NCBI GenBank assembly: GCA_050259275.1
Contig: JBLNAI010000011.1
Location: forward strand, 1,151-65,150
Length of the DNA stretch: 64,000 nucleotides
Source of the DNA: Acidobacteriota bacterium
GTDB taxonomy: Bacteria > Pseudomonadota > Gammaproteobacteria > Burkholderiales > Burkholderiaceae_C
Reading direction: 5' to 3'
Shown here: positions 1-4,423 of the stretch, in pieces
How the letters are laid out: each line of letters opens with the position of its first letter
Position numbering within the stretch: position 1 is the stretch's first letter
Program-made: the position numbers and the translations under genes
The notes under the pieces: model-generated
Database searches by the model: none
Told to the model about the DNA's origin: nothing
The model's input: only the letters and a program-made list of their open reading frames with translations

Positions 1-786
1 GAACCAGCCTGACGCCGTGGGGGCCGCGCCCGCGATCACGCCTGCGCAATGCGTGCCGTGCCCTTTGTCGTCGCGCCACCATTCGAAGGGGTCTTGGCCG
101 TCGAGGGTGTTGAATCCTCCGGCCACGGCCACGCTGCCGCCACATGGGTCGACGCCTGAGTCGATCACGGCAACCTTGACACCGGCCCCCGCCATGCCGG
201 TGCGAGCCCAGAACTCGCTGGTGCCCAGCAGGGCGTGAATCCAGGCGCTGTCACGGCCCGGCATCAACGGCCGCAAGGTCACGGCGAGTTGATCGATCCA
301 CTGATCTTGCTCGGGGCGTGTCAGCACACGCGACCAATGGGTGTGTCGCGGTGAAATGATCACCTGCTCCAATGCCTGCTCGCGAACCACGATGCGGGCC
401 AGGCCGTCCGCATCGGTGTGGGCCCTGTAGCCGACCCCTGCAGCCAGCGCGTAGATCGAACAATCGGCCACCCCCTGGCCGTTTGAATCGACGACCTGAA
501 TGCACACTTCACGCGTCGCGGCTTGCGCGTCGACCATGGGTGGCAGCCCGGGCATGCCCAGCAGGCACAGAGGCTGGTCCTCTTCGATCGGGACATCGGT
601 GTGCCGATGGCGAAAGGCCTCGATCTCGTCGTCGGCCATTTCAACCACCTGGCGACGGGGGCTTGATCGATGGGGTGAGGCAAGCGCTGCCGGCCGCCTG
701 GGCGCAAAGTCTCGCAGCACTTTCAACGGTGCCTGGCCCGGTGGAGCCGCAGCCGGCTGGCTGATCAGGACCCGGCGGGTGGTCAT
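1..786 (-). CDS. S8 (subtilisin-like) serine peptidase, 3' part outside the window; no signal peptide
   Basis: Missing from the ORF track because it is edge-truncated. Manual translation from the ATG at 786 gives MTTRRVLISQP...GAGVKVAVIDSGVD...DDKGHGTHCAGVIAG, open to base 1. Catalytic Asp (VAVIDSG) and His (HGTHCAG) motifs are present; the Ser motif is off-window. Confidence 0.9.
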   Translation of the reverse strand, partial: MTTRRVLISQPAAAPPGQAPLKVLRDFAPRRPAALASPHRSSPRRQVVEMADDEIEAFRHRHTDVPIEEDQPLCLLGMPGLPPMVDAQAATREVCIQVVDSNGQGVADCSIYALAAGVGYRAHTDADGLARIVVREQALEQVIISPRHTHWSRVLTRPEQDQWIDQLAVTLRPLMPGRDSAWIHALLGTSEFWARTGMAGAGVKVAVIDSGVDPCGGSVAVAGGFNTLDGQDPFEWWRDDKGHGTHCAGVIAGAAPTASGWF

Positions 787-806: not shown

Positions 807-1604
807 TCAACCGTATTGCACGCCCAGCGCCTGCAGGCGTTGTATGAGGGCGCTGTCTGGTATCGAGGCTTCAGCGGGGCCGATGAACAGGGTGCTGGCA
901 GCTGACAGATCGATGTGGTGCAGGTAACCCAGGGCCACGGGTGTCAGGCGCGGCTTGCAGCCAAAGTGCACCGCGGCCTCGTACACGATGGCCTGGTGAC
1001 CCAAGGGATAGCGGGTGCCCAGCTTCTCGATCAGGAAGGGCATCAGCGGCGTCGGATACCGGCCCTCTGATCGGTAGTGCCCATTGCCCAGGATGCCGAT
1101 CTGCCACAGCACCAGCGCGCTGGCTGGGTCCATGGCCCGGTTGTTGAAGAGAAAGTCGGTCGCCTCATAAGACAGGCAGCCGGTGGCGGCCGGGTCGATG
1201 CAGATATCGGCAAACAGACAGTCTTCGGCAGACACACCGGGCAGCATCACCGCGCTGTAGCCTTCGGCCCGAGCCCGTTTGATCGACTCATGCGAGGGAT
1301 AGACGAACACGCCGGGGTGACCGTAGAACACCGCACAGACGCGTTCGCCAGCGCGCACGCAGGCCAGCACGCGTTCGACCATGGCCTCGTAGGTGGCCAG
1401 TCGGTCCTGGCCCTCGCCATACAGAACCTGCAGCGACTCGGCGGTGTCGTTCAGGTCGTGGATGGCACGCTCCGCCACCGGATCGCCGACCACGTACAGC
1501 ACCCGATCGGCTGCGCGGATCCAGGCGATCGACTCGGTGGTCATCTGCCCGACCGTCCGCAGACCGGTGCCCACCACCACCAATTGACCCTTGTTGGCGC
1601 TCAT
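807..1604 (-). CDS. Borosin-type peptide backbone alpha-N-methyltransferase (split borosin NMT, SonM/OphMA-like; TP_methylase fold)
   Basis: Motifs GQLVVVGTG, LYGEGQDRLATYEAMV, FYGHPGVF, LPGVSAEDCLFAD, SYEATDF, LWQIG and IVYEAA. Y62/R68/Y72/Y94 match the spacing of OphMA Y66/R72/Y76/Y98. Confidence 0.9.
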   Translation of the reverse strand: MSANKGQLVVVGTGLRTVGQMTTESIAWIRAADRVLYVVGDPVAERAIHDLNDTAESLQVLYGEGQDRLATYEAMVERVLACVRAGERVCAVFYGHPGVFVYPSHESIKRARAEGYSAVMLPGVSAEDCLFADICIDPAATGCLSYEATDFLFNNRAMDPASALVLWQIGILGNGHYRSEGRYPTPLMPFLIEKLGTRYPLGHQAIVYEAAVHFGCKPRLTPVALGYLHHIDLSAASTLFIGPAEASIPDSALIQRLQALGVQYG

Positions 1605-1873
1605 GGCGAGACTCCCTTCATCATGGCCTGCTCGATGGCCGCCGCTTCGCGAGAGGTCAGGGCTGCGATGTCCTCTTCCGACAAACCCTCTTGTGCAAAA
1701 AAGCCCATCGGATCCTTGATCAGTTGATACAGCAAATCGGTGTCCACACTGACGCGCGCAAGAAAGCGAGTGAGCGAGGCGGCTTCCTGCACCGAGGGCA
1801 CGGCGCTGGTGGCTGCCTGTGGGCGGGTGGCGGCGCTCCCGGCTTGATCAGGGGATGAGTCGTCTGAGGCCAT
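1601..1873 (-). CDS. Possible separately translated in-frame 90-aa BBD-like protein (internal start within the PRMT ORF)
   Basis: AAGGAG lies 8 nt upstream of an in-frame ATG (aaggagacttcgccATGgcc), giving MASDDSS...AMMKGVSP. Confidence 0.45.
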   Translation of the reverse strand: MASDDSSPDQAGSAATRPQAATSAVPSVQEAASLTRFLARVSVDTDLLYQLIKDPMGFFAQEGLSEEDIAALTSREAAAIEQAMMKGVSP

Positions 1874-2863
1874 GGCGAAGTCTCCTTGGAGGGTCGAAGA
1901 TCGGGGTGCTGGCTGGGGTGCCATGCCGGGTCCGACCCGGGTGTCGTGGGATTGCCAGGGGCCCTCGTCGACGCTGACCGCCCAGGCCAGATCGCTGAGC
2001 CCAGGTTCGCGGGGCAGGCATGCCACCCGTGCATGCAGGTGTGATGAGGCAGGCAGCGTCAGGGTGCTTCGCAAGGGCAAGGTGAGCTGGCCCCAGTGGG
2101 TCTCTGGGTCCCAGGGTGCGTTGCGCAAGGTCACCGAAGGCGACAGCTCGGCCTCGAACCAGGCAACCAGCGCATTGGCACGGCCATCGCGCTCGATCTG
2201 AAAGTCCATGTCGGCCTCGAAGGGCGCCAGGGCGCAAGTCAGATCGTCGGTGCGGGTGTCGGTGGTCCACATCAGCTGTGGTGCGCTGATCAGGTCTTGT
2301 TCTCGAACCTGATAGCGTCGGCACAGCAGATCGTGTACCGATGCCTCGCTCAAGCCCGCCAGGTCCAGGCCCAGCCGGTTGTCGCGCAGGTAATCCAGGT
2401 CGCACTGGGTGGCCAGATGAGCGGGCGCGGCCCAGGCCTTGACCACTGAAGGAACCATGATGCCGCCGGGTTTGAGCCAGCGGTCCCGGGCGAGCAGGAC
2501 CGGGTAGAGCAGGTTTTCGTCGACCCCGATCGTGCCCAGCCACTCCGACACGATCAGGTCCACTTGCTCGGGCAAGCGGACGTGCTGCATGTCCGCTTCG
2601 ATCACCTGCACGACATGCCCGACACCATTGCGCTGAGTCAGCTCTCTCGCCAGACGGGCTACGGGCGTGCGCTCCACCGCGTACACCCGCGTCGCGCCCG
2701 CCTTGGCGGCCAACAGACTCAGCACACCGCTGCCGGCGCCCACATCGAGCACCACGCAACCCGGTTGTACCCATTCACGCAGCGCCGCCTCAAAGGCCTG
2801 CATGCGCGGCCCGTCGCGCAGCATCCAGCGGTGCACATCCAAAGTCTCGTAGGGCAATGTCAT
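1601..2863 (-). CDS. Protein arginine methyltransferase (PRMT)-like enzyme with a C-terminal borosin-binding-domain-like module
   Basis: Motifs HRWMLRD, VLDVGAGSG (SAM motif I), VYAVE, the double-E loop DLIVSEWLGTIGVDE, RDRWLKPGG and the THW loop PETHWGQ. The C-terminus LTRFL..DTDLL..DP..GLSEEDIAAL resembles a BBD/LigA helical bundle. ATG at 2863 has AGAAGG upstream; the stop overlaps the NMT start (ATGA). Confidence 0.8.
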   Translation of the reverse strand: MTLPYETLDVHRWMLRDGPRMQAFEAALREWVQPGCVVLDVGAGSGVLSLLAAKAGATRVYAVERTPVARLARELTQRNGVGHVVQVIEADMQHVRLPEQVDLIVSEWLGTIGVDENLLYPVLLARDRWLKPGGIMVPSVVKAWAAPAHLATQCDLDYLRDNRLGLDLAGLSEASVHDLLCRRYQVREQDLISAPQLMWTTDTRTDDLTCALAPFEADMDFQIERDGRANALVAWFEAELSPSVTLRNAPWDPETHWGQLTLPLRSTLTLPASSHLHARVACLPREPGLSDLAWAVSVDEGPWQSHDTRVGPGMAPQPAPRSSTLQGDFAMASDDSSPDQAGSAATRPQAATSAVPSVQEAASLTRFLARVSVDTDLLYQLIKDPMGFFAQEGLSEEDIAALTSREAAAIEQAMMKGVSP

Positions 2864-2886
2864 GGATGAAAACCTTCTGCGCGAGT

Positions 2887-3561
2887 TCAATAGAACAGTG
2901 GGGGCCTGATCAGCGGTGGGCGAACCAGCAGGGGCGGGCGCACCAGCAAAGGGGGGCGCACCAACAGCGGTGGGCGGATCAAGGGCGGCCGGATCAGCGG
3001 GGGCCTGACCAGCAGCGGCGGCCGGATCAACGGTGGGCGCACCAGCAGAGGTGGGCGGATCAAGGGAGGGCGCACCAACAGAGGCGGACGAATCAGCGGG
3101 GGGCGCACCAGCAAGGGCGGGCGAATCAACGGAGGACGCACCAGCAGCGGCGGCCGGATCAGCGGTGGCCGAATCAGTGGGGGCGGTGGCGGGACGGGGT
3201 TGGGGTAGCCGCCGAAGCTGTCGTCATAGCTGCTGTAGTAGCCGCTACCGTAGCCGTAGGGGTCGCTCCAGCCGGCATAGGGGTCCTGTGCCTGACCGTA
3301 GGGGTCGGCATAGCCGCTGTAATCGGCGCCATATCCGGCACCCCAGTCGGCTTCCTGGCCCCCTTGGCCACCTTGGCCATAGGGGTCGCCACCGCCACTG
3401 TAGTCATAGCCGGCCTGCGCGTAAGGATCGGCGCCATAGGGGTCGGCATAGGCAGCATAGGGGTCGCTGTACTGCGATGCGTCATAGCCTTCGTAACCCG
3501 TGGGAGCGGCGTTGTAGGGGTCGCTGTACGGGTCGTAGCCATAGGGGTCGTAGTGAGACAT
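2887..3561 (-). CDS. Repetitive 224-aa putative RiPP precursor/substrate (acidic DPY block plus PPLIR/PPLLVR repeats)
   Basis: SD GAAAGGA lies 7 nt upstream of the ATG at 3561 (MSHYDPY). It is the first gene of the operon, and the repeats use varied synonymous codons. An upstream ATG at 3693 lacks a clear SD. Confidence 0.8.
   Translation of the reverse strand: MSHYDPYGYDPYSDPYNAAPTGYEGYDASQYSDPYAAYADPYGADPYAQAGYDYSGGGDPYGQGGQGGQEADWGAGYGADYSGYADPYGQAQDPYAGWSDPYGYGSGYYSSYDDSFGGYPNPVPPPPPLIRPPLIRPPLLVRPPLIRPPLLVRPPLIRPPLLVRPPLIRPPLLVRPPLIRPPLLVRPPLIRPPLIRPPLLVRPPLLVRPPLLVRPPLIRPPLFY
2890..3192 (-). repeat. Coding tandem repeat: 9x PPLIR and 8x PPLLVR, ending PPLFY
   Basis: Counted directly from the translation. 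The 15- and 18-bp units differ at third codon positions. Confidence 0.95.
3193..3561 (-). repeat. Low-complexity coding block with 10 DPY motifs (26 Tyr, 16 Asp, 2 Glu, no Lys/Arg in 123 aa)
   Basis: Counted directly from the translation. Confidence 0.9.
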
Positions 3562-3887
3562 GTCCATATCCTTTCGTGCACCATGGGTTGGGGGCGTCCT
3601 TTGGTCACGACGGGCGGATTCACGCTGACTTGGGCCGGGCCCTGAGCCTGCGCCCGGGTCCTTGGCCTTCTTCCTGGATTTCGATGTCGTCATGAGGCAC
3701 AGTCCAGATTGCGGAGAATCTGCCGGCCTGCAACATTCCTGACTGGCTACTACCCGTTGCAGTGTCGTCCGGACGATGATGCGGCGCGAATTCCGCCATC
3801 CGCAATCCCTAGCTTGTTGGCGGTTCTGTCATCCGTTTGACGCGCTGTCGCGTTGTAGGTCTGTGTCCCCTACCTGGCAGCAGGCTC

Positions 3888-4202
3888 ATGAACCGCCATA
3901 CCGAACAACAGTTGTTGAATTTCTGCGTCGCTCAACACGGTCGCTTCAATCCCGAAGCGTGGCAGAACCTCGAAGGGGTGGCCCCCGAGCAAAAGGCGTG
4001 CGCGATGCTGCTGCTGGCCAACGCCCGCTGGTACGGTCGGCTGTCCGAGTTGCGCGATCTGATCAGCCAATCACTGCCCAATCAGGGCGGCAATCCGGCC
4101 AGCCGGCTGAGCGAGTTGTCAGCGCGTGCTGGCTTCAATGGCGCGCGGTTCGTTAAACGTTTGCAAAACCTGTTGTGGCTAAGCACCGAGCCCAAGCGTT
4201 GA
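3888..4202 (+). CDS. Hypothetical protein (104 aa), divergent from the methyltransferase operon
   Basis: ATG at 3888 (MNRHTEQQLLNF...) fills the gap with protein-like composition; no family recognised. Confidence 0.6.
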   Translation: MNRHTEQQLLNFCVAQHGRFNPEAWQNLEGVAPEQKACAMLLLANARWYGRLSELRDLISQSLPNQGGNPASRLSELSARAGFNGARFVKRLQNLLWLSTEPKR

Positions 4203-4205
4203 GAG

Positions 4206-4240
4206 TTATCCCCGTGATCTGTGGATAACCTTGTTGGAAA
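4206..4240. promoter_or_regulatory. DnaA-box-like cluster
   Basis: TGTGGATAA at 4220-4228 is the exact reverse complement of TTATCCACA. An inverted degenerate TTATCCCCG lies at 4206-4214 and a weaker TGTTGGAAA at 4232-4240. Confidence 0.45.
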
Positions 4241-4423
4241 CTAGGGGGGAAGTGGCATTCTCCCTGGGTGGCGGCTTGCAGTGCTCCAAAATGCAGCAGG
4301 TTCATGACCACATCGGCTCCGGCAGCCCCCTGAAATGCCGGGACTATCTGTAGTGGAGGTGTCCAAAACTATGGGTAAGCTTGCAGGCTGGCCATTCTTC
4401 CCCGCCTGATTTCTGAGGACACA

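Follow-up and report, generated by a model that had tools for sequence, protein, structure and literature searches.

What does a bacterial cell make from a gene that ends in 17 tandem proline- and arginine-rich units, and why does this gene head an operon that encodes two different kinds of methyltransferase? The question is raised by gene A, on the minus strand of a 64,000-nt stretch of contig JBLNAI010000011.1 (the whole stretch is hereafter called the window, and positions refer to it unless a locus label is given; labels such as L004 denote sister loci from other genomes or contigs). The genome carrying the window is 99.99% complete. Behind A (2887..3561), the same operon encodes a homolog of type-I protein arginine methyltransferases (PRMT) fused to a C-terminal borosin-binding domain (BBD), a borosin-type backbone N-methyltransferase (NMT), and an S8 protease. 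We consider it fairly probable that A serves a new split-borosin variant as its ribosomal substrate and is methylated both on its Arg side chains and on its backbone. Below, we describe the repeat array, the enzymes, and the conservation of the cassette, and then weigh this proposal against its alternatives.

A repeat array maintained by selection on the peptide

The preliminary description of this DNA had reported nine PPLIR and eight PPLLVR units capped by PPLFY, and the minus-strand open reading frame (ORF) of A indeed ends in exactly this way. The array had been placed at 2890-3192; the units themselves fill 2890..3183, and the remaining nine nucleotides (3184..3192) encode three further Pro residues. 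The two unit types alternate, as described, with a longest strictly alternating run of 11 units rather than ten (by length, the order is 5-5-6-5-6-5-6-5-6-5-6-5-5-6-6-6-5), and in Tandem Repeats Finder the best-scoring periods were 33, 66, and 99 nt, which corresponds to an 11-residue super-repeat. Overall, the 98 residues of the array (residues 127-224 of A) include 36 Pro, 43 Leu/Ile/Val, and 17 Arg, and no acidic residue.

The synonymous codon variation noted earlier between units (CCG/CCC/CCT/CCA, CTG/TTG, and CGC/CGT/CGG) extends to AGG, ATC/ATT, and GTG/GTC/GTT. Every codon column varies, and there is no amino-acid difference among units of the PPLIR type or among units of the PPLLVR type. 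We counted at least 20 substitutions between units, all of them synonymous (a probability of ~10^-9.5 under random single-base change), and synonymous divergence among the copies amounts to 0.61 per synonymous site. Moreover, the units recur in orthologs whose PRMTs are just 39-82% identical. Together, the purely synonymous differences and this recurrence bear out the earlier proposal that the array reflects selection on the peptide and not recent DNA slippage.

The array is preceded by an acidic half of 126 residues, which contains 18 Asp/Glu, 26 Tyr, and 10 DPY motifs, and neither Lys nor Arg. The charges of the acidic and the basic half nearly cancel in the three closest family members: -18 and +17 in the window, -19 and +18 in L004, and -19 and +18 in L005. 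Translation most likely starts at 3559..3561 rather than at 3693: AAGGA stands 7 nt upstream of the former ATG, and close orthologs likewise begin with MSHYDPY. This makes A a protein of 224 aa, not 268 aa.

Searches of Pfam, NCBIfam, and PDB sequences returned no match to A. AlphaFold2 modeled it without secondary structure, at a mean confidence (pLDDT) of 50 (<45 over the acidic half, ~62 throughout the array); this low-confidence model supports a non-globular protein only, not a polyproline-II rod. A word-indexed search of 5.8 billion proteins with A yielded only two spurious Pro-rich matches, and an exhaustive phmmer search of 1.84 billion representatives yielded 101 matches, of which the 11 examined were unrelated low-complexity proteins. 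The family members described below could thus be reached only through their PRMT and NMT neighbors, not by a direct homolog search.

Two predicted methyltransferases and a borosin-binding domain on the PRMT

A is the first gene of a tightly packed minus-strand operon, followed by the genes for the PRMT-BBD fusion, the NMT, and the S8 protease. The stop codon of A lies 23 nt from the PRMT start, the PRMT and NMT genes overlap by ATGA, and the NMT stop codon lies 20 nt from the S8 gene. No signal peptide was found in A or in any of the other three proteins.

The PRMT portion matched PRMT2, PRMT8, PRMT6, and PRMT1 in the PDB (E ~1e-33), as well as the Pfam families PRMT_C and PrmA. Its AlphaFold2 model (pLDDT 82.7) aligned in Foldseek to PRMT6, PRMT1, and CARM1 with TM-scores of 0.74-0.81. 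The Rossmann plus beta-barrel fold of type-I PRMTs is accompanied by all of their signature motifs, namely motif I, the post-I Glu, the double-E loop, and the THW loop; across 19 homologs (41-82% identity), motif I and the double-E and THW loops are invariant. By these motifs and the model, the enzyme looks catalytically intact and is predicted to be an Arg omega-N methyltransferase. Since the acidic half of A has no Arg or Lys, the only part of A on which this enzyme can act is the repeat array.

The NMT matched dbOphMA (E 3e-56) and SonM (E 1e-52) in the PDB. It has the TP_methylase fold of borosin NMTs together with the YGHP motif (as FYGHPG), the DCLFAD motif (as EDCLFAD), and the catalytic Tyr/Arg/Tyr residues (Y62, R68, Y72, and Y94 are all present), and these intact catalytic residues predict an active enzyme. 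In likening A to a multi-core, borosin-type N-methylated precursor, the preliminary description was therefore right in outline, since an intact borosin NMT stands two genes downstream and repeat precursors are documented in split borosins.

The C-terminal tail of the PRMT is a BBD. It is separated from the PRMT barrel by a disordered linker (residues 312-355, pLDDT <50) and folds into five predicted helices. A single tail sequence gave nothing significant against the PDB (the best hit was a LigA-like region of gallate dioxygenase, E 0.36). A profile built from 16 PRMT tails gave one significant match, positions 2-47 of SonA (E 1.9e-7), with LigA-like dioxygenase caps and the OphMA clasp as runners-up; the same kinship of the BBD with LigA-like dioxygenases and the OphMA clasp is given in the study of SonM-SonA (PMC8429565). 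Foldseek with the whole PRMT-BBD model returned PRMTs only, the BBD not having been searched on its own.

A hidden Markov model (HMM) of the BBD found the domain in all sister cassettes. In most loci it lies at the PRMT C terminus (E 1e-22 to 1e-27); L012 and L095 have a short PRMT and carry the BBD at the N terminus of the NMT (E ~1e-17). Whichever gene encodes it, the domain thus lies between the two catalytic domains, and what shifts is the gene boundary alone, which argues that the NMT is its partner. In the window, the last BBD helix is followed by ~6 non-conserved residues, compared with the 8-residue linker and 10-residue core of SonA, so that the PRMT carries a BBD without a core. In the window genome, the BBD, the NMT, the PRMT, and the DPY-rich ORF each occur exactly once; hence, there is no canonical BBD-plus-core precursor elsewhere in the genome for this NMT to act on. 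The linker also holds a candidate internal start, whose AGGAGA-N8-ATG arrangement is kept in the window, L004, L005, L007, and L009 while the linker around it diverges. A free BBD protein of ~90 aa may therefore be made as an additional product.

The S8 protease retains the motifs of its catalytic triad, Asp (VIDSG), His (HGTH), and Ser (GTSMA), and has no hydrophobic N terminus. Its orthologs (45-73% identity) are found in L004, L005/6, and L012, the last being 45% identical and encoded at a different position. These loci and the window are the ones in which a dedicated protease stands beside the precursor; none was seen in the sequenced flanks of L007, L009/L093, L010, L011/L014, L094, and L095.

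A conserved three-gene cassette

The order A-PRMT-NMT recurs in ~10 distinct sister loci. All the contexts we fetched consist of a gene without a Pfam match, then a PRMT, then an NMT, both when approached from the PRMT (L004, L005/6, L007/8, L009, L010, L011, and L012) and when approached from the NMT (L093, L094, and L095, three of three with the cassette order). Repeat arrays are conserved in L004, L005/6, L007, L009/L093, L010, L011/L014, L012, and L095, and a fragment of one is present in L094. All A genes on these contigs encode YDPY-rich acidic repeats and then PP(L/V)(L/I/V)1-3R units, and the YDPY-rich blocks are present in every family member with a whole A gene.

The sequence of the units is less constant than their general form. 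Across the family we observed PPLIR, PPLLVR, PPLLIR, PPVLVR, PPLVIR, PPLLLIR, and also PPLVR, with unit lengths of 5, 6, 7, and 9 residues; the order of 5- and 6-residue units is not kept (L007 and L009), and the array usually ends in PPLF(F/Y/K/R). The 9-residue unit, QPIW(G/E)PVIR, is found in Allosphingosinicella-type metagenome-assembled genomes (MAGs; L011:4206-4910 and L014:3140-3901), flanked by a few PPLIR units. These units reduce the conserved minimum to Pro-aliphatic-aliphatic-Arg followed by Pro or Gln. In L095 (A at 3068-3922), YDPY blocks lie on both sides of the Arg block.

An N-terminal motif of ~30 residues, YVYxxNxxTxQVLKxEExDxxxGxxKE, precedes the YDPY region in the more distant members, namely in L009:3998-4906, L012:4037-4834, and the A genes of L011 and L095. 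The window, L004, L005, and L007 lack this motif, which may serve as a leader or as a recognition element.

Clustered at 90% identity, the PRMT homologs whose match extends over the tail fall into ~35 groups, and the nearest NMT homologs sit on contigs with these same lengths. None of the 36 genomes of the same genus that were searched contained the NMT, and in the rest of the order it turned up in a single genome (44% identity). When 185,579 species-representative genomes were scanned with the PRMT, the full cassette appeared in L014 only, and the matches were mostly stand-alone PRMTs of ~317 aa without an NMT beside them. These stand-alone enzymes (L013-L092, e.g., L013, L015, L019, L020, and L032) are 42-51% identical to the window PRMT and are widespread in Actinomycetota, Chloroflexia, Acidobacteriota, and Myxococcota MAGs. 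No borosin NMT is encoded near them, and we do not count them among the cassette members.

A proposed pathway to a doubly methylated polycation

The pathway we infer, including its chemical steps, the enzyme complex, the cleavage, and any biological activity, would proceed as follows. The PRMT homolog would methylate the guanidino group of the Arg that closes every unit, and the NMT would methylate the backbone amides of Leu, Ile, and Val, and possibly of Arg, between the prolines. The BBD borne by the PRMT, and perhaps the free BBD as well, would dock onto the NMT as the BBD of SonA docks onto SonM, and by virtue of this docking both methyltransferases would act on the same repeats as one complex. 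The acidic half would offset the charge of the polycation (-18 against +17) and serve as a pro-region or handle, and the cytoplasmic S8 protease, where present, would free the methylated basic part by removing that half. The product would more probably be one long polycation, rich in proline and methylated, than separate peptides of 5 and 6 residues.

The two predicted modifications are suggested by different lines of reasoning. For the side chains, the neighboring PRMT is the most direct explanation of the invariant Arg at each unit end, and this Arg together with a dedicated, apparently intact PRMT makes side-chain methylation the simplest reading. For the backbone, the argument is one of precedent. 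SonM of Shewanella oneidensis methylates Leu63 and Ile65, and the main determinant of NMT binding in the SonM-SonA pair is the five-helix N-terminal BBD that docks SonA onto SonM (PMC8429565). KchMA prefers aliphatic residues, Leu best of all, and in the engineered enzyme acidic, basic, and aromatic residues were not methylated at the position tested. Furthermore, repeat precursors without their own BBD, and up to 32 consecutive methylations, are documented in split borosins. Taken together, these precedents point to the Leu/Ile/Val residues between the prolines as the probable NMT targets.

A more extreme form of the pathway, which we regard as doubtful, would have methylation run to completion on all 17 Arg and on all 62 non-proline backbone amides (36 of the 98 residues being Pro), resulting in a "peptoid-like" polycation. 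This would be a polypeptide of ~100 residues without a backbone hydrogen-bond donor, produced by a PRMT and an NMT held together by the BBD, with the attached acidic Tyr-rich half keeping the producer safe until a protease removes it.

Several observations weigh against A as a doubly methylated borosin substrate. Pro-rich cores were not reported for borosins in the literature searched, and some borosin NMTs (types VII-IX) methylate Asp/Glu, so that the NMT might act on the YDPY half instead. The cassette has no conserved exporter, immunity gene, or signal peptide, a poor fit to a secreted natural product or a classical antibiotic, and the S8 protease was seen in just 4 of the ~10 cassettes. 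In three loci (L035, L044, and L047), a PRMT and an NMT occur together and no PP..R protein is visible in the flank. Finally, the family comes almost solely from metagenomic contigs.

Alternative explanations

The same enzymes and modifications would also be expected if A were a true multi-core precursor, which the S8 enzyme or some other protease cuts after each Arg to release methylated PPLIR and PPLLVR in roughly equal amounts. An Arg does end every unit, the operon is translationally linked to an S8 subtilase whose triad is intact and whose ortholog occurs in the distant cassette of L012, and multi-core borosin precursors exist (type V RceA). In fungi, repeat precursors are processed by S8 enzymes of the kexin type. 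However, the units of A adjoin directly, without spacers or recognition sequences, and the sole candidate cleavage site is an Arg followed by Pro; every cut would thus fall on an Arg-Pro bond, a poor site for most serine proteases. Unit length and composition also drift across the family (5, 6, 7, and 9 residues; PPLVR, PPLLIR, PPVLVR, PPLLLIR, and QPIWGPVIR) without preserving the 5/6 order, and the protease was not seen in the sequenced flanks of the six loci or locus pairs listed above. We therefore find multi-core cleavage unlikely, and the earlier suggestion that one precursor yields two small peptides at a ratio near 1:1 is not supported.

Alternatively, A may give rise to no natural product but function inside the cell as a diblock of Tyr-rich acidic and Arg-rich parts, with Arg and backbone methylation tuning its self-association into a coacervate or scaffold. 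This would liken A to FUS-like eukaryotic proteins, in which Arg methylation tunes Tyr-Arg contacts. All four operon proteins lack signal peptides and no exporter is conserved; the halves are near charge balance in the three closest members, with 26 Tyr against 17 Arg in the window; the whole of A is predicted to be disordered or extended; and in L095 the Arg block is flanked on both sides by YDPY blocks. Nevertheless, the characterized borosin NMTs in the literature searched all belong to pathways for peptides made on the ribosome and modified after translation (RiPPs), and a dedicated protease recurs in the cassette. The rarity and patchiness of the cassette, including its absence from the 36 same-genus genomes searched, are likewise more typical of accessory secondary metabolism than of a role in organizing the cell. 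On balance, we see an intracellular diblock as an unlikely but serious alternative.

We consider it improbable that A is a substrate of the PRMT only, with the NMT acting on something else such as the short tail after the BBD, the free BBD protein, or the YDPY half, and the array thus left free of backbone methyl groups. Such a division of labor would account for the presence on the PRMT, and not on A, of a domain that normally precedes the core in type IV precursors; the possible internal start could give a small SonA-like protein, and some NMTs do methylate acidic residues. Yet just ~6 non-conserved residues follow the last BBD helix, where SonA has its linker and core, and in L012 and L095 the BBD has no free end at all, being N-terminal on the NMT. 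In addition, KchMA methylated neither acidic nor aromatic residues at the tested position, and types V-VIII offer documented cases of repeat precursors that lack a BBD and are served in trans.

Lastly, the notion that the array is meaningless low-complexity sequence, or that the real gene is the overlapping 262-aa plus-strand ORF (2857..3645) in a GC-rich genome where spurious ORFs are common, is effectively refuted, and we rejected that ORF as a gene: the variation between units is silent in the minus frame and residue-changing in the plus frame, which marks the minus frame as the one under selection, and ~10 loci conserve the protein read in this frame along with its start, cap, and place in the operon.

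Relation to known systems

As in the type IV pair SonM/SonA, the window encodes a stand-alone NMT of ~265 aa and a five-helix BBD homologous to SonA. SonA, however, combines BBD and core in one small peptide, whereas here the BBD resides on the PRMT, the proposed substrate is a repeat protein of its own, and the operon adds a methyltransferase of a second kind. The split borosins of types V-VIII (RceA/RceM, SliA/SliM, and AinA/AinM; bioRxiv 10.1101/2021.12.24.474128) resemble the cassette in having a repeat precursor without a BBD and a BBD provided in trans. Their precursors, of 110-600 aa, receive many methylations, even consecutive ones, and their BBD-NMT fusion is shared by L012 and L095. 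In contrast to the Pro/Arg units of A, their cores are of the DVIELSSGGEL, TEVX, and D[V/I]D[V/I] kinds, and they have neither a PRMT nor a BBD on a third enzyme.

Four borosin classes have been published: fused; NMT-BBD plus core; BBD-core plus NMT; and no BBD (PMC11395268 Fig. 1). L012 and L095 fit class 2. The window, L004-L011, L014, L093, and L094 fit none of the four, because their BBD lies on a second tailoring enzyme. A fusion of a BBD to a tailoring enzyme other than an NMT has a bioinformatic parallel in the BBD-GNAT protein, listed as an "unusual architecture" and scored as a precursor by RODEO (Lee et al. 2024 bioRxiv, Fig. S5); there, the partner is an acetyltransferase rather than an arginine methyltransferase.

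The PRMT shares its fold and all signature motifs with the eukaryotic type-I enzymes (PRMT1/2/6/8 and CARM1). It differs from them in being bacterial and operon-encoded, in its BBD tail, and in its apparently dedicated repeat substrate, which presents Arg in an Ile/Val-Arg-Pro context and not in RGG. Bacterial relatives of PRMTs have been tied to secondary-metabolite operons in general terms (PMC3417536), and a review of RiPP methyltransferases mentions arginine only for the N-terminal alpha-N-dimethylation of plantazolicin. The terms "arginine" and "PRMT" were not found in the borosin surveys searched or in the supplements of Lee et al. 2024, and our literature searches (borosin with arginine methyltransferase, PPLIR, and these supplements) revealed no description of an A-PRMT-NMT system. 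The new elements here are the family-wide conservation, the BBD that changes genes, and the lack of an alternative precursor in the genome.

The array also recalls proline-rich antimicrobial peptides (PrAMPs), such as apidaecin, Bac7, PR-39, and oncocin, and amphipathic polyproline repeats such as (VHLPPP)8 of gamma-zein, in being Pro/Arg-rich, cationic, and likely extended or in a polyproline-II conformation. The antimicrobial likeness drawn in the preliminary description holds for composition and goes no further. PrAMPs are short secreted cationic peptides with PRP motifs, whereas the array of A is bacterial, consists of ~100 residues of strict repeat, contains 17 RPP and no PRP, has no signal peptide or conserved exporter, and is predicted to be methylated. 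It also differs from KEX2-processed repeat proteins, dikaritins, and cyanobactins, which have spacers or recognition sequences, in that its units abut.

If A is indeed methylated on side chains and backbone, the cassette would be, as far as is known, the first case of a RiPP-type pathway that uses a PRMT homolog to modify the Arg side chains of a peptide made on the ribosome, and A would be the first defined natural substrate of a bacterial PRMT. This would bear on the proposed descent of eukaryotic PRMTs from peptide-methylating enzymes of bacterial secondary metabolism (PMC3417536). Borosins would also gain a fifth architecture, in which a second tailoring enzyme bears the BBD, and a new chemistry of the core, that of Pro/Arg/aliphatic repeats. 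Substrates of the A type may explain some of the 733 borosin NMTs without an assigned precursor (Lee et al. 2024). From a practical perspective, three genes expressed in E. coli could offer a simple route to long, protease-resistant, N-methylated and Arg-methylated proline-rich polymers.

Feature coordinates and neighboring genes

Table 1 Features of the A operon in window coordinates.
Feature	Position	Strand	Description
Gene A	2887..3561	-	224-aa repeat protein; stop codon 2887..2889; probable start ATG 3559..3561
Acidic Tyr-rich half	3184..3561	-	Residues 1-126; proposed pro-region or recognition region
Basic repeat array	2890..3183	-	9 PPLIR + 8 PPLLVR + PPLFY cap, then stop; 98 aa
PRMT-BBD	1601..2863	-	420 aa; type-I PRMT homolog with C-terminal borosin-binding domain
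BBD	1604..1777	-	PRMT residues 363-420; five predicted helices (363-414, pLDDT 87-93)
Candidate internal start	1871..1886	-	AGGAGA ~8 nt before in-frame ATG 1871..1873, in the PRMT-BBD linker
NMT	807..1604	-	265-aa stand-alone borosin-type backbone alpha-N-methyltransferase; ATG overlaps the PRMT stop
S8 subtilase	1..786	-	N-terminal 262 aa of 488 aa; the rest extends past the window edge to contig position C11:473

A scan of 3400..4300 for sigma-70 promoters and terminators found none. Divergently from A, at 3900-4202 on the plus strand, the window encodes a 100-aa ORF (MNRHTEQQLLNFCVAQHG...) without a Pfam match. This ORF, whose position and sequence L004 and L005 conserve, may regulate the operon.

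Two of the loci that pair a PRMT with an NMT contain other repetitive or small ORFs. In L035 (Bryobacteraceae), a repetitive stretch of 1.2 kb (946-2160) lies upstream of the PRMT and NMT genes. Five of its six frames are nearly open, reading as GIFVPLIPRLRLRIRIVVAG-type or VGRVGNVG-type repeats or, on the opposite strand, as PTRPTLPTFPT-type repeats, and GC content at third codon positions singled out no coding frame. In L044, a 96-aa ORF (2916-3203) encodes a BBD (E 7e-5) and then a hydrophobic tail (…GALFIVRIFRAAV); it adjoins the NMT, with the PRMT downstream. By its predicted protein, L044 thus has a PRMT in the company of a canonical precursor of type IV-like form.

Additional genes accompany the cassette in individual lineages. 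Upstream of A, L012 encodes a B12-binding radical SAM protein of 615 aa (34-1881) and the S8 ortholog (2464-3978); the former hints at further modification in this lineage, possibly C-methylation. In the L009/L093 lineage, a TetR gene and an RND efflux pair precede the cassette, which is followed on the opposite strand (L009:7163-11245 and L093:5922-10046) by genes for a NodS-like methyltransferase, two glycosyltransferase-like proteins, and YdjC, joined in L009 by an ABC transporter.

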